From an archaeon (GTDB taxonomy: Archaea > Iainarchaeota > Iainarchaeia > Iainarchaeales > CSSED10-239), in assembly GCA_035400625.1 (NCBI GenBank), contig DAOMZT010000001.1, positions 306,644 through 370,643 of the forward strand: a DNA stretch of 64,000 nt. Reading direction: 5' to 3'. This document shows positions 53,126-60,966 of this stretch, piece after piece. The notes under the pieces were generated by a model. That model saw only the letters and a list, made by a program, of their open reading frames with translations, did no database searches and had not been told where the DNA came from. Every line of letters begins with the position of its first letter. Position 1 is the first letter of the stretch. Made by a program: the position numbers and the translations under genes.

Positions 53126-53218
53126 TTTGTTAAAGTTAAGAATTTACGAAACCTTTAAAAACAATTATTATATAAACTTATTTATAATATATATATTAAA
53201 TTAAAAAGTGATTTATTT

Positions 53219-54064
53219 ATGGCAAAAGATTTAGGAGACGATTTCGGTTCTGATTTTGATATGGGAGGATCTAAAAAAGTATTTGGTGGATCAAAGATCA
53301 AATGGGAGACTTTGTTACCAATAATTATAATCATTGTAGTTATTTTGTTAATTGTTTTTAGAACTAATATATTGGCTACAGGGTTAAATATCTTTGGTGC
53401 CAAGCAAGGTGCTAAGATTTTGATACTTGGAGCGCCATCTCCAGAGTTTAGGGCAATATTAACAGATCAAGAAAATAAAGATATTATCAAAGAAGCTAGA
53501 TTTATGACTTTGGATAGTATTTCTCACAATCCTGAAGAAAGAATAAAAAATTATGATATAATTATTCTAGATCAATCAATGCAAGCTGATAAGACAGTAA
53601 CCAGAAGGACTGGCGAAGCAATAACTAATTATGTTAGAAAAGGTGGAAGGCTTATTGTTGTTTTAAATTCAGGAATTAAAAGACCTGATGATCCTTCAGT
53701 TCTTGGCTGGCAAGCAAACTTTGGTGGAATTGTCCCAGTAAATTGTTATAATTCTGGTGGGACACCATCATGTTTAAGTCAAAGAGATCTTCAAGGAACT
53801 TTATATGTAATAAAAGAAGATCATCCAGTTGTTAAAGGAATAACACAAGTTCCAGCTGTTGAGACATCAGGAAGTATAAGAACCCAAACATTTGATGTTT
53901 CAATAGATGGAACAGAGATTGCTTATTTAGAGGATTCTAGAACAAAGAAGACCTATACCGGAATTGTTGAAGAGCCATTATTAATGGGCAAAGTTATTTA
54001 TTTCAATTTCAATCCAGCAATAAGCAAAGCAATCGTAATTAAAACAATACAATATATGAGTTAA
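53219..54064 (+). CDS. hypothetical membrane-anchored protein
   Basis: An acidic/Gly N-terminus, the TM segment LLPIIIIIVVILLIVF, and an extracytoplasmic domain (YDIIILDQS, RKGGRLIVVLNSG). Confidence 0.5.
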   Translation: MAKDLGDDFGSDFDMGGSKKVFGGSKIKWETLLPIIIIIVVILLIVFRTNILATGLNIFGAKQGAKILILGAPSPEFRAILTDQENKDIIKEARFMTLDSISHNPEERIKNYDIIILDQSMQADKTVTRRTGEAITNYVRKGGRLIVVLNSGIKRPDDPSVLGWQANFGGIVPVNCYNSGGTPSCLSQRDLQGTLYVIKEDHPVVKGITQVPAVETSGSIRTQTFDVSIDGTEIAYLEDSRTKKTYTGIVEEPLLMGKVIYFNFNPAISKAIVIKTIQYMS

Positions 54065-54168
54065 GTAAAATAACTTAACTTTTCTTTTTTTATTTTTAAA
54101 ATACATTTATAAATTGTATTATTCATAAATTATATATTATATTTTCCCGTTAATACTGCTTTAAGGCA

Positions 54169-54175
54169 GGAGGTG
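54169..54175 (+). promoter_or_regulatory. Shine-Dalgarno (GGAGGTG) for rpl1
   Basis: A perfect anti-SD complement 8 nt upstream of the TTG start at 54184. Confidence 0.5.
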
Positions 54176-56028: not shown

Positions 56029-57585
56029 ATGTCAGATTTTGTAGAACACAGATTTGTTAAGAAAGAAACAATTCAAAAAAGACTTTATCAAGAGCTTTTA
56101 ACAGCACAAGCAATTAAGCAAAGCACTCTTGTTGTTGCCCCAACTGGTTTAGGTAAAACAATCATTGCTGTTCTGTTGATTGCTTATACCTACAACCCAA
56201 AGAAATCAGTAATTCTCTTATCACCTACTAAGCCATTAATATCTCAACATAAAAAAAGCATTATAAAATTCTTGGAGATTCCAGAAGATAAAATTATTCT
56301 TTTGACTGGCGAAACTTCCCAAGAGAAAAGAAAAGATTTCTATGATGGACAAGGCCTAATTATTTGTGCAACACCCCAAACTATACAACATGACTTGGAA
56401 AAAAAACTTCTTGACCCCAAAAACTTTAATCTTATTATATTTGATGAGGCACATAGAGCAGTTGGCAATTACTCATATACTTTTATTTCTCAGTATTTTT
56501 CAGATGATGTTAAAAGATTAGGATTAACTGCCTCTCCTGGGGCTAGCAAAGCAAAGATTCAAGAGGTTGCAGACAACCTTGGCATTTCACATATAGAGAT
56601 AAGAACAGAGCAAGACCTTGATGTTAAAGATTATGTTAACGATATTGAAGTTGATATAAAGTTTTTGGAGCTTGACCCTATCTCAAAAGAAATATCTAAA
56701 ACCATTGATTCTTATATTTTGCAAAAGATAAATCTTTTGCGTAAGCTTGGCTGTCCAATACCAACCAATTATTCCAAAAAACAAATAATTGCTATTCAAG
56801 CTGGTCTTTTTGAGAGAGTAAAGAAGGTAAAGAATAATACTGGTTTTATTGCAATTTCAACAATCGCCTCTGTTCTTAAGTTTCTTCATGCCAAAGAACT
56901 AATTGAAACTCAGGGTTTTTTTGCAACAGAAACTTATCTTTTAAAATTAAAAACAGATAATCTTGAAAAGAAATCAAAAGCACTATCTGCAATTATTAAT
57001 TCATCTGAGTTTTTAGAGGTACTTAAGCTTCTTGAAAAAGCAAAGACAAAGAGATGTGCTAAAGAAACGGCTCTTCTAGAAATGGTTTCAAGCTTTCTGA
57101 AGGAAAACCCAAACTCGCGAATTCTTGTTTTTAACAACTATAGGGATAATGCAAACCATCTTGTAGAGGTGCTTAATCAAACAAGTGGTATAAAAAGCTC
57201 ACGATTTGTTGGACAGGCAACCAAAAGCCTCTCCGATAAAGGATTATCTCAAAAAGATCAATCAAAAATCATTTCTGATTTTCGTGAAGGCATCTATAAT
57301 GTTTTGGTGTGTACTTCTGTTGGCGAAGAGGGTCTTGATATCCCATCAGTTGATTTAGTAGTATTTTACGACGCTGTTGCCTCTGAGATAAGAAATATCC
57401 AGAGGCGTGGAAGAACCGGCCGTTTTAATGTTGGCAAAGTTATATTGCTTCTTAACAAAGACACCATTGACGAAAAATATTATTTTGTTTCCCAAAACAA
57501 AGAAAAGAAAATGAAATCAATTCTTAAAAATTTCTATAAGCCAGAAAGGAAAAAAAGGGTGCAAAAAAAGCTAAGTGATTATTAA
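56029..57585 (+). CDS. hef: Hef/FANCM-type SF2 helicase (helicase half of Hef, separate ORF)
   Basis: APTGLGKT, FDEAHRAVGNY, LGLTASPG, an inserted helical domain, and QRRGRTGR. Length is 518 aa. Confidence 0.85.
   Translation: MSDFVEHRFVKKETIQKRLYQELLTAQAIKQSTLVVAPTGLGKTIIAVLLIAYTYNPKKSVILLSPTKPLISQHKKSIIKFLEIPEDKIILLTGETSQEKRKDFYDGQGLIICATPQTIQHDLEKKLLDPKNFNLIIFDEAHRAVGNYSYTFISQYFSDDVKRLGLTASPGASKAKIQEVADNLGISHIEIRTEQDLDVKDYVNDIEVDIKFLELDPISKEISKTIDSYILQKINLLRKLGCPIPTNYSKKQIIAIQAGLFERVKKVKNNTGFIAISTIASVLKFLHAKELIETQGFFATETYLLKLKTDNLEKKSKALSAIINSSEFLEVLKLLEKAKTKRCAKETALLEMVSSFLKENPNSRILVFNNYRDNANHLVEVLNQTSGIKSSRFVGQATKSLSDKGLSQKDQSKIISDFREGIYNVLVCTSVGEEGLDIPSVDLVVFYDAVASEIRNIQRRGRTGRFNVGKVILLLNKDTIDEKYYFVSQNKEKKMKSILKNFYKPERKKRVQKKLSDY
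57572..57585. repeat. 14-bp perfect direct repeat copy 1 (taagtgattattaa)
   Basis: Covers the last codons and TAA of the hef helicase ORF. It recurs exactly at 58198-58211. Confidence 0.9.
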
Positions 57586-57646
57586 ATCCATTTATAAGCT
57601 TAACTTATCTGGTATTATTTAACATAAGTTTAAATAAGGTGAGGAA

Positions 57647-57916
57647 ATGTTAGAAAAAACAGTAAATGTAAATCTCAAAATATCTGACTATTCTAATAGA
57701 GTGTTAGGAGTAGTAAAAGAGAAATATGGCTTTAAGGACAAATCTCAGGCTCTCGATAAAATAATGGATATGTATGGGGAAGAGTTTGTAGAAAAAGAGG
57801 TTAGAGAAGATGTTATTTTAGAAGTGATTGCAGAAGTTGAAAAAATGAAAATGCAAAAACAAAAGCCAATGTCTAAAAGTGAATTAAATAAGTTTTTTGA
57901 AAATGCTAAAAAGTAA
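57647..57916 (+). CDS. putative antitoxin (DUF2683-like small protein)
   Basis: VNLKISDYSNRVLGVVKEKYGFKDKSQALDKIM resembles archaeal antitoxin-like proteins. GGTGAGG lies upstream. Its stop lies 9 nt before the toxin ATG. Confidence 0.5.
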   Translation: MLEKTVNVNLKISDYSNRVLGVVKEKYGFKDKSQALDKIMDMYGEEFVEKEVREDVILEVIAEVEKMKMQKQKPMSKSELNKFFENAKK

Positions 57917-57925
57917 TGTGGTAAA

Positions 57926-58204
57926 ATGACATTTGCTTCTAATCTATCTAATGAATTAAAAGAAACAATTAAGAAATTGTATTCTAAAGACAAAAAACTT
58001 TTTTTAGAATTACAAAAAAAGATAAATCTAATTATCTCTTGTGATAAAGAAACTATCAATCATTATAAAAATTTAAGATACGGTCTTTCAGATTACAAAA
58101 GAGTGCATGTTGGAAAATCTATTGTTCTTTTATTTTCAGTAGATGTGCAGAATAATACAGTCTATTTTGTAAAATTTGATCATCACGATAAAATTTATAA
58201 GTGA
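57926..58204 (+). CDS. relE: RelE/ParE-family type II toxin
   Basis: 92 aa. YKNLRYGLSDYKRVHVGKSIVLLFSVDVQNNTVYFVKFDHHDKIY follows the RelE pattern (L.G....R.RVG.YR..Y.........I....HR..VY). Confidence 0.65.
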   Translation: MTFASNLSNELKETIKKLYSKDKKLFLELQKKINLIISCDKETINHYKNLRYGLSDYKRVHVGKSIVLLFSVDVQNNTVYFVKFDHHDKIYK

Positions 58205-58211
58205 TTATTAA
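58198..58211. repeat. 14-bp perfect direct repeat copy 2 (taagtgattattaa)
   Basis: Covers the last codon and TGA of the toxin, the spacer, and the first nt of the hef nuclease ATG. Confidence 0.9.
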
Positions 58212-58879
58212 TGACTCAAAAAATAAAAATTATTTGTGACACTCGTGAAAGAGTTAGTCAAATTTATCAAGAGCTAAAAGCTCTAACAAACGATTCCTTT
58301 GAAGTAGAGGTTGTTGTAGAACAGTTATCTCTTGGCGACTACCAGCTAAGCGATCAGGTCTTGATTGAAAGAAAAACAATAGCTGATCTTGAAAGTTCAA
58401 TTATTGATGGCAGGATTTTCTCACAGCTTGATAATCTTTCAAGCAAGGTAAATAAGCCAGGCCTAATTATTGAAGGGGTTATTAATTTTTCAGAAAGTAA
58501 CACTCGAATCAACAACAAGTCCTTGATTGGCCTTATCACTGCAATTGGTCTTAACTATCGTGTCCCGATCTTTTTTACAAGGAACCAAAAAGAAACCGCT
58601 CTTTTTCTTTATGTGATTGCAAAGCGTGAGCAGTTTGGTGTCAAGACAGAAATCAAACATCGCTTCAGCAAGAGCAGGATGTCCTTTTCTGATCAGCAAT
58701 TATTTATCTTGGAGTCTTTTCCAGATATTGGCCCAACACTTGCTAAAGCTCTTCTTAAAAAATTTAAAAATATCAGAAACATCGCCAATGCTACAGTTAA
58801 GGAGCTTCAAGAAGTGGAGCAGATGGGTCCAAAGAAAGCAGAAAAGATGCATTATCTTTTCTTAAGAGATTTTATTTAG
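58211..58879 (+). CDS. hef: ERCC4/XPF-type nuclease with C-terminal (HhH)2 (nuclease half of Hef)
   Basis: ICDTRE, the GDYQLSDQVLIERKTIADLESSIIDGR ERCC4 signature, and the C-terminal FPDIGPTLAKALL...MGPKKAEKM. Confidence 0.88.
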   Translation: MTQKIKIICDTRERVSQIYQELKALTNDSFEVEVVVEQLSLGDYQLSDQVLIERKTIADLESSIIDGRIFSQLDNLSSKVNKPGLIIEGVINFSESNTRINNKSLIGLITAIGLNYRVPIFFTRNQKETALFLYVIAKREQFGVKTEIKHRFSKSRMSFSDQQLFILESFPDIGPTLAKALLKKFKNIRNIANATVKELQEVEQMGPKKAEKMHYLFLRDFI

Positions 58880-58884
58880 TTTTT
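58852..58884. repeat. 33-bp direct repeat copy 1 (ttatcttttcttaagagattttatttagttttt)
   Basis: Covers the last 8 codons and TAG of the hef nuclease plus 5 nt. Copy 2 at 59530-59562 differs at one position. Confidence 0.9.
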
Positions 58885-58935
58885 GCTATACTTATTTAAA
58901 TAATTGCAATTATATGATTTTTGAGGTTTTCATAC

Positions 58936-59517
58936 ATGAATAAAATGAAATCAATAATGTTAATATCTTGTTTTATATTATTTATTATCGCTCCTGTTTA
59001 TGCATCAGCAATGCGTGGTGAAGCAATAAATAATCAAACTAAAGAGTGTGCCACTTATTTTCAAGGTGATGAATGCATGGACTGTGCGTTATCAGATCCC
59101 TGGATTGAACGAAAACACGGAGAACCTTGCCCAGAAGGATACAGAGAAATTAAAGATATGCAAGCACCTTCTATTTGTACGCCTATTCAAAATCAGTTTT
59201 GCTGTGAGGAATATCATTCTGGGGCAAGTGGCAATTGTACAAATCTTGTTATAAACAATATTACAAAAGAATGTGCATTTGTTTTGGACATTAATAGTTG
59301 TGAGAAATTGCCAAAAAATTGGTTGCCAGTAGCATCTACTGAATATAAAAATTGTCCAATAAGTTTAGAATATAAATGGTTAGATGATGTGTTAGTGTGT
59401 GATACCAAATCTACAAATTACAATAAATTCTATATGTTTGTTGTGATTGCAATTATAATAATCTTAATAATGGGAGTTTGTCTTAAAAAATATAAAAAGG
59501 TTTTATGTCGTCAATAA
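58936..59517 (+). CDS. Cys-rich secreted protein with a C-terminal TM anchor and basic tail
   Basis: Signal peptide MNKMKSIMLISCFILFIIAPVYA, about 14 Cys in the ectodomain, and the C-terminus FYMFVVIAIIIILIMGVCLKKYKK. ATG at 58936 is preferred over TTG at 58921. Confidence 0.6.
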   Translation: MNKMKSIMLISCFILFIIAPVYASAMRGEAINNQTKECATYFQGDECMDCALSDPWIERKHGEPCPEGYREIKDMQAPSICTPIQNQFCCEEYHSGASGNCTNLVINNITKECAFVLDINSCEKLPKNWLPVASTEYKNCPISLEYKWLDDVLVCDTKSTNYNKFYMFVVIAIIIILIMGVCLKKYKKVLCRQ

Positions 59518-59529
59518 GCAAATAAGATT

Positions 59530-59562
59530 TTATCTTTTCTTAAGAGATTTTACTTAGTTTTT
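59530..59562. repeat. 33-bp direct repeat copy 2
   Basis: ttatcttttcttaagagattttacttagttttt, ending 1 nt before the stop of the convergent ORF 59563..59916. Confidence 0.9.
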
Positions 59563-59916
59563 TTAAATGCAATTTTTAATCTTTAAAAAGGTTATTTCTG
59601 GCTTATATGTTTTTTTTTGTTTTCCTGTCCTTTGTAATGGTGTTCCTTTTATTTGAACTTTTCCTCTTGCTGCCATGATGTTATACTCTAAAATAAGATC
59701 TCTAAGATGTTTTTTTGCTTTGCTCATTTCTTTTGTAGTGATTTGATATTTGTTTTCTAATTTTTCTAGTTTTTTTACAAGTTCAAATTGTCTTTCAATG
59801 TTAAGTATTCTATCTATATTAGTTTGTTTTCTTATTAGCCTTTTGGTTACATCTTTTGTCTGTTTTCTTGCAATTCCGCTTTTACCAATTCTTCTTTTTA
59901 CATTATATTTAGGCAT
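59563..59916 (-). CDS. small basic hypothetical protein (MPKYNVKRRIGKSG...)
   Basis: 117 aa, K/R-rich with a coiled-coil-like centre. No recognisable family. Confidence 0.5.
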   Translation of the reverse strand: MPKYNVKRRIGKSGIARKQTKDVTKRLIRKQTNIDRILNIERQFELVKKLEKLENKYQITTKEMSKAKKHLRDLILEYNIMAARGKVQIKGTPLQRTGKQKKTYKPEITFLKIKNCI

Positions 59917-60019: not shown

Positions 60020-60415
60020 ATGGTTGAATGGAAAAGAGTATCAAGAAGAAAAGCAACAGGCGGAGTAAATAATGCTGTTAATGCTAAAACAAAATCCTTA
60101 AGTGATAAGGGCGGTAAATTCTCAAAGACAACAATTGCAAAAGCAGATAAGAGATTCAAGACCAGAGCTGTTGGTGGCAATAAAAAAACAAAGATTTCTC
60201 ATGCTCAGTATGTCTTGGTTTCTGAAGGTAACAAGACAATAAAAGCAAAAGTTATAGATGTTACAGAGAATCCAGCAAACAAGCACTTTGTAAGACAAAA
60301 GATAATCACAAAAGGTGCAATCCTTAAAGTAGATGTAGATGGCAAAGATGCAAAAGTAAAAGTAACATCAAGACCTGGTCAATCAGGCCAAGTAACTGGT
60401 GTTTTTGTTAAATGA
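60020..60415 (+). CDS. rps8e: 30S ribosomal protein S8e
   Basis: SRRKATGG, RAVGGNKK, ENPANKHFVRQKIITKGA and VTSRPGQSGQV motifs. Confidence 0.9.
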   Translation: MVEWKRVSRRKATGGVNNAVNAKTKSLSDKGGKFSKTTIAKADKRFKTRAVGGNKKTKISHAQYVLVSEGNKTIKAKVIDVTENPANKHFVRQKIITKGAILKVDVDGKDAKVKVTSRPGQSGQVTGVFVK

Positions 60416-60966
60416 AATCCAATTCTTTTGTTAAGAGATTTAAAAAAGATTTAAAAAATAAGAATGAGCACAAAAAAGCTCTTCTTTTCTTGTTCTTGTT
60501 TATTTTTGTATTTTCGCTTTCTTATTTGTTGTTTGCCAAGTCTCCAATTTCGGGATATATAAATTATTTTTTTGGTTTTTCATCTAGTGTAGTATTGTCT
60601 GTTTTTGGCGTAAGCAATAATTTTGTTTTTGATTCATTGACAAAGACCTCCACAATTGTTGTGTCCAATCTTAAAGAACCAATAGTGATTTCTTTTCTTT
60701 GTTCAGGCATCCTAGAATTTTGCCTTTTAATTTCTGCTATTCTTTCTTCAGTAGGTGTTTCTCTAAATAAAAGGATAGTTGGCGCTCTTCTTGCAATTCC
60801 AATCATATTTTTCTTTAATCTCACAAGGATAGTTGTTACTTCTCTAATAATAATAAATAGCAATCTTTCTTTTGCAAATTTTGTACATGGTTTCCTTTTT
60901 AGGCTTTTCCTTATAATTATTGTTATTGGAACCTATTATGTTTGGTTTAGAACTAACACTGAGTGA
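60412..60966 (+). CDS. exosortase/archaeosortase-family membrane protein (short form)
   Basis: Polytopic protein with a conserved-looking Cys (SFLCSGILEF), Arg (FFNLTRIVV) and His (FANFVHGFLF) in the order expected for the sortase-like triad. ATGA overlap with rps8e. Confidence 0.55.
   Translation: MKSNSFVKRFKKDLKNKNEHKKALLFLFLFIFVFSLSYLLFAKSPISGYINYFFGFSSSVVLSVFGVSNNFVFDSLTKTSTIVVSNLKEPIVISFLCSGILEFCLLISAILSSVGVSLNKRIVGALLAIPIIFFFNLTRIVVTSLIIINSNLSFANFVHGFLFRLFLIIIVIGTYYVWFRTNTE

Follow-up and report, generated by a model that had tools for sequence, protein, structure and literature searches.

Does a perfect direct repeat on either side of a gene cassette record how the cassette arrived? 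The question was raised by a 64,000-nt stretch of archaeal DNA (hereafter the window), in which hef is split into two ORFs, with two further small ORFs in between that are bracketed by two copies of a 14-bp sequence. A first-pass annotation, made from the sequence of the window, had taken this repeat as the footprint of a discrete insertion.

RESULTS

A toxin-antitoxin cassette lies in the junction of a split hef gene

The first-pass annotation placed the small ORF pair exactly within the split-hef junction, and the ORFs before and after the pair do match the two parts of the Hef profile PRK13766 (Table 1). Hef is thus encoded in the window by two ORFs, not as a single polypeptide with a linker. 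The helicase half was also split off in relatives down to ~57% identity, as an ORF of 514 to 544 aa. The split was conserved in every relative at ≥54% identity, comprising dozens of MAGs, and fused Hef was found only at ≤48% identity. Micrarchaeota hef is likewise split, with a gap of 1 to 11 nt and no insert. Since the split is clade-wide and insert-free in Micrarchaeota, the cassette is not shown to have caused it, and that idea is unsupported. A literature search on split Hef in DPANN archaea returned nothing specific.

Table 1. Features of the hef junction and its surroundings (window coordinates)
Feature	Coordinates	Strand	Description or basis
Hef helicase half, 518 aa	56029..57585	+	Separate ORF ending L-S-D-Y-TAA; NCBIfam Hef PRK13766 2-516 of 781, E = 6.9e-171; Pfam DEAD/ResIII/Helicase_C
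Left 14-mer copy, TAAGTGATTATTAA	57572..57585	+	(C)TA AGT GAT TAT TAA; final helicase codons L-S-D-Y and stop
Cassette leader	57586..57646	+	TATA-like TTTATAAG 57591-57598; inverted ATAAG/CTTAT 57594-57598 and 57604-57608, candidate operator; SD GGTGAGG 57638-57644
Antitoxin ORF89, 89 aa	57647..57916	+	Divergent DUF2683/RHH-like, by homologs' PF10884 matches and NCBI label
Toxin ORF92, 92 aa	57926..58204	+	YafQ/RelE/ParE superfamily, ending ...HHDKIYK-TGA; TIGR00053 and PF05016 profiles, HP0892 structure match
Right 14-mer copy	58198..58211	+	Third base of toxin Tyr codon, AAG (Lys), TGA stop, 6-nt spacer TTATTA, A of nuclease ATG
Derived patch completing the repeat	58202..58209	+	Differs from L127 in four changes: C>T (giving TGA), +T, A>T, A>T
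Hef nuclease half, 222 aa	58211..58879	+	ERCC4 and two helix-hairpin-helix motifs; PRK13766 569-775 of 781, E = 2.3e-62; PF02732, PF14520, PF12826
33-nt direct repeat, 32/33 identical	58852..59562	+	Copies 58852-58884 and 59530-59562, bracketing a 198-aa Cys-rich membrane ORF (58921-59517)

The 612 bp between the repeat copies is, as predicted from sequence, a self-contained type II toxin-antitoxin cassette. The toxin matched the YafQ profile TIGR00053 (E = 1.8e-16; 60.6 bits, under the cut-off of 87.25), PF05016 (E = 7.7e-4; score 20.4 against a cut-off of 23), and Helicobacter pylori HP0892 (PDB 4nrn/2otr; E = 6e-4). Its end, ...FDHHDKIY, aligned with ...LGSHSELF of HP0892, with the C-terminal catalytic His and an aromatic residue present, and the motif HHD.(A/I)Y was conserved in all relatives. 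These matches support homology to the YafQ/RelE/ParE superfamily, short of family-level membership. The antitoxin itself had no Pfam match at E ≤ 0.1 and none in PDB sequence and profile searches. PF10884 was matched by 8 of its 34 homologs (best E = 7.7e-10), and the NCBI label for a 98%-identical protein is DUF2683, which we presume may be the MJ1172 family; a literature search on DUF2683 found nothing specific. The AlphaFold model of the antitoxin (pLDDT 83) has an extended stretch at residues 1 to 13 (unstructured or strand-like), helices at 14 to 27 and 32 to 47, and two C-terminal helices. RHH-type folds ranked top for this model in Foldseek at non-significant values (E ≥ 0.28). The earlier call of a toxin-antitoxin pair, whose families were still to be confirmed, therefore holds, the toxin being placed by the TIGR00053 and HP0892 matches and the antitoxin, as DUF2683-like, through its homologs.

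Against L127, the closest non-conspecific relative sampled (86% DNA identity), dN/dS was 0.03/0.46 for the antitoxin and 0.039/0.34 for the toxin, indicating that both genes are under purifying selection. The two genes are separated by 9 nt and the pair was conserved across relatives at 57% to 99% identity, in which the antitoxin C-terminal tail and the toxin N terminus co-vary as two types. The leader sequence TTTATAAG...AACTTATCT was kept in five relatives (L013, L118, L127, L128, and L129), and AACTTATCT reaches to relatives at ~60% identity (L020 and L043). We infer that the leader serves as the cassette's own promoter and operator.

The hef junction is a variable slot in related archaea

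As a survey of 40 or more loci showed, what the hef junction contains varies within a clade of Iainarchaeota/Diapherotrites-like DPANN archaea. The slot was empty or held the toxin-antitoxin cassette (in two specificity variants), a DUF5680 gene, or both; a literature search on DUF5680 returned nothing specific. In empty slots, the helicase stop overlaps the nuclease start or stands 2 nt from it. The order of cargo also varied (helicase-X-TA-nuclease in L044 and L049, helicase-TA-X-nuclease in L021).

An empty site with a TAATG overlap, as the first-pass annotation had predicted, exists in L117 and L126 (~83% DNA identity) and carries the same 14-mer. Removing one repeat copy and the 612 bp from the window yields TAAGTGATTATTAATG, the junction of both genomes, where the single repeat copy reads ...gtTAAGTGATTATTAATGcct and the helicase stop overlaps the nuclease start. 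The window differed from both by one clean 626-nt indel, which in the comparison with L126 corresponds to positions 57572..58197 (one copy plus 612 nt). Between L016 (empty) and L042 (occupied), whose flanks were 94.7% identical, there was a single 622-nt indel, a recent one with just 2 nt of boundary ambiguity and no long duplication. Presence/absence boundaries were clean in three lineage pairs, and the comparisons of L016 with L042 and of the window with L126 bear out the view that the cassette is a discrete unit.

Slot states, with five or more switches between empty and occupied, were scattered over the flanking-gene tree, showing that cassettes are often gained, lost, or exchanged as alleles through recombination. 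The two cassette types were incongruent with the flank tree, and L012, discordant between the helicase and nuclease trees, is a candidate for a recombination breakpoint at the junction. No near-identical cassette donor was found; identity to other lineages followed that of the flanks, except in the two-type middle segment. Homologous recombination has been described in this clade for "Ca. Forterrea" (PMC5905446), whose genome is survey locus L032.

The 14-bp repeat is non-random by position and comparison

The repeat was confirmed in sequence and position as two exact, non-palindromic copies of TAAGTGATTATTAA in the 64 kb (Table 1). It was found in independent same-species assemblies (NCBI, JGI, ENA, and Logan) and is therefore no assembly artifact. 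Both copies contain GTGAT, which the right copy puts ~7 nt upstream of the nuclease ATG. GTGAT is a Shine-Dalgarno (SD)-like motif enriched 7.5-fold upstream of start codons in the window (8 of 71 starts against a background of 1.5%). The left 14-mer also occurs at the helicase end in L117, L126, and L127, and the right copy was restricted to the window species and L037. In 843 kb spanning 129 related loci, every occurrence of the 14-mer was at a helicase 3' end, except for the second copy that the window's own species carries, and so it is not the common stop/start context that the first-pass annotation had named as a possible objection.

Exact direct repeats of ≥14 nt within 1 kb numbered 12 in the window, and shuffled windows already yielded 2 to 3, making repeat length alone weak evidence. 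What sets the repeat apart from chance is its position and the comparison with other loci. When the helicase-end 14-mer was compared with the nuclease leader at 23 occupied loci, 7.8 ± 1.6 of 14 positions matched; the window was an outlier at 14/14, and none of the other 22 loci exceeded 11/14. A permutation test (P = 0.85; 7.65 versus 7.85 of 14) gave no sign that nuclease leaders in general copy the helicase end of their own locus, and a rule of this kind, whether from old decayed duplications or from SD convergence in every lineage, was rejected.

The repeat most likely postdates the insertion

The age of the repeat was read from L127, represented by one 4.3-kb Logan contig; polarity rests on this contig plus outgroup parsimony. 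The window, L037, and L127 form a clade, ((window, L037), L127), in both flank trees. Window and L127 were colinear over 2,851 nt with one 1-nt gap, and identity was 86.1% in the helicase, 91.5% in the antitoxin, 91.4% in the toxin, and 85.9% in the nuclease. L127 has the 14-mer once, and its right junction, tataagCGATAAAAATG, is of the clade-consensus type. Its toxin ends Y-K-R-stop, as in seven of the eight other cassette-bearing close relatives. Among clade-A cassettes other than that of the window, eight of nine end in xGA-TAA (Y-K/P-R/K-stop) followed by 2 to 3 nt and ATG; L128 has its own TGA and then TAA. Ten other full-length cassette-bearing relatives also had no long repeat, the longest shared string being ≤9 nt.

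Mismatches between the window and L127 in this region fell at 58192, then at 58202, 58205, 58208, and 58209, and next at 58267. Four changes thus crowd into 8 nt of a 75-nt segment that shows no other difference. Window and L127 share the first 57 nt of the nuclease without a mismatch, and the right repeat copy is therefore not a donor/recipient boundary. Synonymous divergence from L127 was only 0.31 for the cassette, against 0.475 for the flanks (z = −3.4), and the cassette could have been exchanged after the two lineages split, leaving room for re-insertion. The helicase stop is TAA only in the window, L037, L127, L126, and L117; other clade-A relatives have TAG.

Since L127 carries an orthologous, colinear cassette with no repeat, the repeat is probably not a target duplication. 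A target duplication should accompany the orthologous insertion, allowing for decay, and no repeat accompanies it in L127 or in the ten other cassette-bearing lineages. Judged by these comparisons and by the four clustered changes of the window lineage, the repeat is most likely younger than the cassette's insertion and hence not its scar. The footprint claimed in the first-pass annotation is not supported, and a target site duplication from the original insertion was rejected. We also considered the abrupt switch from L045-like sequence at TATAA as a breakpoint into an empty site, a reading weakened by the intermediate junctions of L127 and L128.

DISCUSSION

Origin of the repeat

We lean, with a confidence only somewhat above even, toward a history in which the cassette was already resident and the 14-bp repeat came later, most likely through one templated event. 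The comparisons, polarized by outgroup parsimony, indicate that the last ancestor shared by the window organism and L127 already had the cassette and that the repeat arose afterward in the window lineage only. In this history, four clustered changes converted an ancestral ...TATAAG CGA TAA AA ATG to ...TATAAG TGA TTATTA ATG. The new toxin end exactly copies the helicase 3' end in the form in which empty-site relatives join it to the nuclease ATG. The presumed single event may have used the helicase end, 626 nt upstream, as donor (through short-patch conversion or template switching) or an incoming empty allele (through a heteroduplex); the two donors are indistinguishable. The event would have been seeded by the existing TAAG.GAT similarity. 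The toxin would thereby have lost its terminal Arg, and the nuclease would have regained the GTGAT ribosome-binding context seen in empty-site genomes. The cassette would also have become repeat-flanked, and precise excision to the TAATG state could follow. If repeat-mediated excision or integration is active, the empty junction AAAAAAGCTAAGTGATTATTAATGACTCAAAA and a circle or tandem junction GATAAAATTTATAAGTGATTATTAAATCCATTTATAAGC are expected.

The rival history, that of the first-pass annotation, is a true insertion. On arriving as a discrete unit in an empty TAAGTGATTATTAATG junction, either within the window lineage or in the ancestor shared with L127, the cassette may have caused a 14-bp target duplication; staggered break repair, one-sided homologous plus microhomology joining, or Campbell-type circle integration via short homology could each have had this result. 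The empty sites of L117 and L126 with their identical 14-mer and TAATG overlap are consistent with this history, as are the 14/14 copies that exactly bracket the insert, the indel against L126 of one copy plus 612 nt, the restricted TAA stop, and the reduced synonymous divergence of the cassette. Next door, moreover, the membrane-protein gene seems to have been inserted recently, with 33 nt of the nuclease 3' end duplicated in the process. We nevertheless consider insertion with target duplication unlikely. The cassette of L127 is orthologous, colinear, and repeat-free, with the toxin end of most of the clade, and passing from a perfect repeat to the L127 junction would require at least four changes that recreate the clade consensus by chance. 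The right copy marks no donor/recipient boundary, the indel between L016 and L042 left no long duplication, the cassette ends have no terminal inverted repeats (TIRs), and no recombinase was found in the 64 kb.

Chance offers another route to the same repeat, one that we rate as improbable to a similar degree. Independent point mutations would have happened on identity with the helicase end, through a CGA>TGA nonsense change and then A/T changes and a 1-nt insertion in the newly non-coding spacer, and some may have been favored for a better nuclease SD (GCGAT>GTGAT) and spacing. The ancestral junction already matched the helicase end at 9 to 10 of 14 positions, the terminal Arg codon reads AGA, CGA, or TGA in relatives (with an independent TGA in L128), AAGTGAT plus 6 to 7 nt plus ATG recurs before other genes in the window, and 2 to 3 chance 14-mers within 1 kb are expected per window. 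This toggling codon, together with a spacer made of A and T only, makes stepwise mutation a point against the templated event. Coincidence is nevertheless hard to reconcile with four changes in 8 nt amid 75 otherwise identical nt, all toward one target sequence, and with 22 other occupied loci that never exceed 11/14; our rough, uncomputed estimate of its probability is <1e-3 even allowing for post hoc selection.

The clean presence/absence boundaries in three lineage pairs, and a slot that takes different cargo in differing order (L044 and L049 versus L021), might suggest that the 14-mer serves as the attachment site of a recombinase, of the Xer or integron type, whose gene lies elsewhere in the genome, and that the cassette is actively mobile. 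We regard this as highly improbable. The repeat is missing from other relatives with the cassette, the 14-mer forms no palindrome, nothing attC-like was seen, and the toxin stop lies just 6 nt from the nuclease ATG. The first-pass annotation saw no integrase or transposase in the 64 kb, and our Pfam search agrees, detecting no such domain in the 38 window ORFs of ≥180 aa or within ±6 kb. No inverted repeat pairing the cassette ends was found and no hairpin-forming repeat at the cassette end; readings as an IS, a MITE, or an integron were rejected, there being no TIRs, no attC, and no recombinase.

A probable neighboring insertion and implications

The Cys-rich membrane gene just downstream is missing from L037 and L127, both of which carry a single copy of the 33-nt sequence. 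In all likelihood, the gene was truly inserted here not long ago, and the nuclease 3' end with its T-run was duplicated as a result; a true insertion with target duplication next door, in this very lineage, counts against the templated origin that we favor for the 14-bp repeat.

A broader reading, which we find quite doubtful, is that these very small DPANN genomes keep the hef junction as a dedicated site for cargo. Short cassettes (the toxin-antitoxin pair, DUF5680, and the membrane-protein gene) would be shuffled with no element-encoded recombinase, via very short homologies, and the survivors would be those with duplicated boundary signals (the 14-mer with the nuclease ribosome-binding site, and the 33-mer with the nuclease 3' end and T-run). 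Long-resident cargo, especially DUF5680, might then be functionally tied to Hef, for example by replacing the partner-binding role of the lost linker or through gating of nuclease expression by the toxin-antitoxin promoter.

The locus is a clean natural example of a selfish two-gene module inside an operon of an organism with almost no mobile-element machinery. In relatives at 57% to 95% identity the slot is empty, filled, or differently filled, which lets the edges of gains and losses be placed with single-base precision. A perfect flanking repeat with a matching empty site can mislead, given that comparison with the nearest occupied relative makes this repeat most likely younger than the insertion. 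The Hef nuclease lies downstream of the predicted toxin-antitoxin promoter; co-transcription, if it occurs, would tie the expression of a repair nuclease to toxin-antitoxin autoregulation. The conserved DUF5680 gene is a possible Hef-associated factor.

Comparison with known systems

The element in the hef junction, a toxin-antitoxin cassette, is of a known kind; what is new is its location. Like YafQ-DinJ and RelE-RelB type II modules, such as H. pylori HP0892-HP0893, it has a ~92-aa toxin that matches YafQ/RelE/ParE profiles significantly and aligns at the C-terminal His...aromatic motif, a small antitoxin gene 9 nt upstream, and its own (here predicted) promoter with an inverted repeat; its spread is patchy, with pseudogenized copies in relatives. 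It differs in that its antitoxin is a divergent DUF2683-like protein, neither DinJ nor RelB, and its predicted toxin scores under the curated family cut-offs. Pairs of RelE with MJ1172-like diverged RHH antitoxins have been described only in methanogens (Makarova et al. 2009, PMC2701414, section 10). They share with the window pair an archaeal RelE-family toxin and a small, highly diverged antitoxin of predicted strand-helix-helix structure, whereas the window pair belongs to DPANN archaea and has a fixed position in the chromosome.

Archaeal Hef of the Pyrococcus furiosus type (XPF/MUS81/FANCM family) has the helicase, ERCC4 nuclease, and HhH2 in the same order, and its profile is covered almost end to end by the two window ORFs. 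In the window, however, Hef is two genes, ~50 linker residues (profile 516-569) are gone, and the junction holds unrelated cargo genes. As with transposon or integrase target site duplications and homology-facilitated illegitimate recombination, a direct target repeat brackets the insert and the empty site has one copy. Unlike transposon and integrase duplications, the repeat is missing at the nearest relative's orthologous insertion, no transposase, integrase, or TIR was found, and the neighboring repeats are of unequal length (14 versus 33 nt). Core-gene-flanked hotspots that hold alternative accessory or defense genes exchanged by homologous recombination offer a further parallel: identical flanking core genes enclose alternative cargo or none, the states are incongruent with the flank phylogeny, and mobility genes are lacking. 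The hef slot differs from these hotspots in spanning only 0 to 1.1 kb, in lying inside an ancestrally single gene, and in holding cargo that is co-oriented, and probably co-transcribed, with its flanks.

The split Hef pair and its junction

The helicase and nuclease halves of Hef match separate parts of the NCBIfam Hef model, and, judged from these matches, Hef of the window is split, without a linker. Names on the records of relatives are Ca. Iainarchaeum, Ca. ainarchaeum, Diapherotrites, and Ca. Forterrea. Separate helicase proteins of 514-544 aa, with nucleases of ~220-238 aa, reach down to ~54-57% identity, and fused Hef (727-817 aa) is found only at ≤48% identity. Hef is also split in Micrarchaeota relatives, with a gap of 1-11 nt and no insert.

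Features at and around the hef junction (window positions unless a related locus is named)
Feature	Positions	Details
Hef helicase half	56029..57585	Hef model positions 2-516 of 781
Left 14-mer copy	57572-57585	last helicase codons (L-S-D-Y) and TAA
ORF89, antitoxin	57647..57916	
ORF92, toxin	57926..58204	
Right 14-mer copy	58198-58211	last base of toxin Tyr codon, AAG, TGA stop, spacer TTATTA, A of nuclease ATG
Hef nuclease half	58211..58879	Hef model positions 569-775; ERCC4 and HhH2
33-nt direct repeat	58852-58884 and 59530-59562	32/33 identical; copies nuclease 3' end and T-run
Cys-rich membrane ORF	58921-59517	198 aa, between the 33-nt repeats; no family match
RelE-like ORFs upstream of helicase	L027 5-208; L044 626-886; L048 1414-1629; L055 2630-2845	

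The junction was surveyed in more than 40 loci.

Occupancy of the hef junction (WIN, window; L numbers, related loci)
State	Loci
Empty, stop + 2 nt + ATG	L038/L122-125, L015, L016
Empty, TAATG overlap	L117, L126
Short spacer, 6-48 nt	L025, L017, L028
TA cassette as in WIN, gap 611-625 nt	WIN, L037, L127, L128, L129, L118, L012, L013, L014, L042, L020, L043
DUF5680 gene	L022-24, L026, L027, L029, L032, L046, L048
DUF5680 + TA	hel-DUF5680-TA-nuc in L044, L049; hel-TA-DUF5680-nuc in L021

This pattern of presence and absence bears out the proposal of the first-pass annotation that the cassette is a discrete unit, and indicates recurrent gain or loss. With flanks 94.7% identical, empty L016 and TA-bearing L042 are separated by a single 622-nt indel whose placement is ambiguous by only 2 nt (TT). 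The predicted empty TAATG site was found in L117 and L126, which read ...gtTAAGTGATTATTAATGcct; there the 14-mer is present once, and the TAA of the helicase and the ATG of the nuclease overlap. The window and L126 are 83% identical over both hef genes, with a single 626-nt gap corresponding to window 57572..58197. The helicase stop is TAA only in the window, L037, L127, L117, and L126, and TAG in the remaining close (clade A) relatives. The L012 locus (CAZGLB010000003.1) has a helicase that shares 71% identity with that of the window and clusters with L014/L015/L016, and a nuclease that shares 86% identity and clusters with the subclade of the window; it probably has a recombination breakpoint at the junction or close to it. 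Published work reports homologous recombination for Ca. Forterrea, which belongs to the clade (PMC5905446).

The DUF5680 gene (PF18931, E about 1e-33; 148-163 aa) is conserved, begins directly behind the stop codon of the helicase, and has an SD of its own. It is seen at the junction in the sister clade (clade B) that includes Ca. Forterrea, and it may be a Hef-associated factor. In L017 and L041, the 48-nt spacer, gccttgcttaaaatgcaaaatagcaagcataaggaggtttagacgact, includes an AGGAGG SD and a short inverted repeat resembling a hairpin; a cargo gene since lost may have left it behind. Directly upstream of the hef helicase, several clade B genomes carry additional RelE-like ORFs that share 27-37% identity with the toxin of the window; TA genes therefore gather on the other side of hef too.

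Age and origin of the 14-bp repeat

The 14-mer described in the first-pass annotation, TAAGTGATTATTAA, and both its positions match the sequence exactly. The window has exactly two copies of it, and in 843 kb from 129 related loci it was found only at helicase 3' ends and as the second copy in the window's species, all of whose many independent assemblies carry the cassette and both copies. Exact repeats of at least 14 nt within 1 kb numbered 2-3 per shuffled window versus 12 in the real one. Because exactness alone is thus not rare, it is the position of the 14-mer, together with the comparison to relatives, that makes the case.

That annotation read the repeat as an insertion footprint, by target duplication or microhomology. 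In both flank trees, the window, L037, and L127, the nearest non-conspecific locus sampled, form a clade, ((WIN,L037),L127), and L126/L117 pair with cassette-bearing L118. The window and L127 are colinear across 2851 nt with one 1-nt gap, and their DNA identity is 86.1% in the helicase, 83.6% in the leader, 91.5% in the antitoxin, 91.4% in the toxin, and 85.9% in the nuclease. L127 has the 14-mer at the helicase end, whereas its right junction is tataagCGATAAAAATG, so that its toxin ends Y-K-R-stop. This ending is common to L127, L129, L118, L012, L014, and L045, with close variants in L013 (P-R-stop) and L042 (K-K-stop); in L128, TGA precedes the old TAA. By outgroup parsimony, TGATTATTA of the window is the derived state. 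Near the junction, the window differs from L127 at 58192, then at 58202, 58205, 58208, and 58209, and next only at 58267; these four changes in 8 nt, within an otherwise identical 75 nt, jointly yield the 14/14 match to the helicase end. The perfect repeat most likely arose after the cassette was in place and, given the colinear cassette of L127 without the right copy, most likely not a footprint formed at insertion.

Across 23 occupied loci, nuclease leaders matched their own helicase end at 7.65 of 14, versus 7.85 for that of another locus (permutation P=0.85), and the window was the sole outlier. Since leaders resemble their own helicase end no more than others', general decayed duplication and general convergence were both ruled out. 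We infer that one templated patch made the right copy, copied either from an empty allele that came in or from the helicase end, which lies 626 nt upstream, and seeded by the TAAG.GAT similarity already present. GTGAT lies upstream of 8/71 start codons in the window versus 1.5% (7.5-fold enriched), and in empty-site genomes it sits inside the helicase's last codons, so the patch would give the nuclease an L117/L126-type leader while taking the terminal Arg away from the toxin. Possible other routes to the same clustered changes are stepwise mutation under selection for the RBS and re-insertion of the cassette into an empty allele. Synonymous divergence between the window and L127 drops from 0.475 for the flanks to 0.31 for the cassette (z=-3.4), a hint that a tract across the right junction was exchanged later.

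Probable neighboring insertion and variable segments

The membrane ORF downstream of the nuclease is absent in L037 and L127, the two closest relatives sampled, each with one copy of the 33-nt sequence; copy 2 in the window has the lineage-native C. The ORF looks like a recent recombinational insertion. Insertions in which the gene upstream has its 3' end duplicated therefore do occur in the window lineage, so the mechanism first proposed for the 14-mer stays credible in general. Divergence between the window and L037 is 4.8% in 58462-58875 (nuclease 3' half) versus about 1.8% elsewhere, which suggests an imported tract. As annotated earlier, no integrase or transposase domain was found, here in 38 window ORFs of at least 180 aa; gene content is core replication, repair, and translation. 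No inverted repeats pairing the cassette ends were found.

Other segments also vary. The minus-strand ORF 59563-59916, between the membrane gene and the S8e gene, is 34% identical to L037 5821-6207 between flanks ~98-99% identical, and L127 shares the window's version; either the window strain or L037 has had this segment exchanged. Downstream of S8e, a 184-aa membrane ORF (60412-60966) is swapped for an 80-97-aa opposite-strand gene in some conspecific contigs, with the replacement at the equivalent place in L003 and L005; this is a further small slot whose content varies among conspecifics. Upstream of ~54100 (53211-54100), inside a 281-aa ORF (53219-54064), the ungapped match to L037 fails, with 126-146 mismatches per 200 nt versus 1-6 downstream, which indicates an indel or replaced segment. 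Two exact copies of the 16-nt sequence AGGTGCTAAGATTTTG are found, at 53407 and at 54171.

The toxin-antitoxin pair

Profile searches upheld the TA assignment: ORF92 is YafQ-like (TIGR00053, E=1.8e-16, under the curated cut-off), and the antitoxin is linked to DUF2683 through homologues. ORF92 also weakly matches the ParE_toxin profile and aligns with H. pylori HP0892 in PDB, including C-terminal His/aromatic residues. ORF89 gave no direct family match; its family is small (73 homologues among 5.8 billion proteins), and distant members match PF10884 (DUF2683), the NCBI label of a 98%-identical copy. In its predicted structure (pLDDT 83), the N-terminus is extended and is followed by two helices and then by two C-terminal helices, and RHH-type proteins top its Foldseek list without significance.

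Both genes are under purifying selection relative to L127 (dN/dS: antitoxin 0.03/0.46, toxin 0.039/0.34). The 61-nt cassette leader, which contains TTTATAAG, inverted repeat ATAAG/CTTAT, and SD GGTGAGG, is conserved in relatives and is a candidate promoter and operator. The cassette is decaying in two loci: in L121, the toxin is cut short by an in-frame TGA after ...SDYK, and in L129 the antitoxin is frameshifted, leaving a 78-aa ORF overlapped by a 112-aa toxin ORF.

Cassette types were scored at window ~57860-58015 and equivalents in L012-L014, L042, L045, L118, and L127-L129. The left part of the cassette tracks the flank tree, and the middle (antitoxin tail and toxin N-terminus) falls into two co-varying types that cut across it: ...SELNKFFENAKK with MTF..NLS.ELKETIKKLYSKDK (type 1), and ...ELD.LCGISKK with ..SFEF.LS... 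(type 2). This distribution suggests recombination inside the cassette at the toxin-neutralising interface.

Overall, the observation is confirmed and its first interpretation is partly supported: the cassette is a discrete, recurrently gained or lost unit with a real empty site, but the perfect repeat most likely did not arise at insertion. Archaeal RelE has been described in pairs with diverged RHH antitoxins (MJ1172-like) by Makarova et al. (PMC2701414). A RelE/YafQ-type TA is an already-known kind of element; its setting here is new and well resolved.
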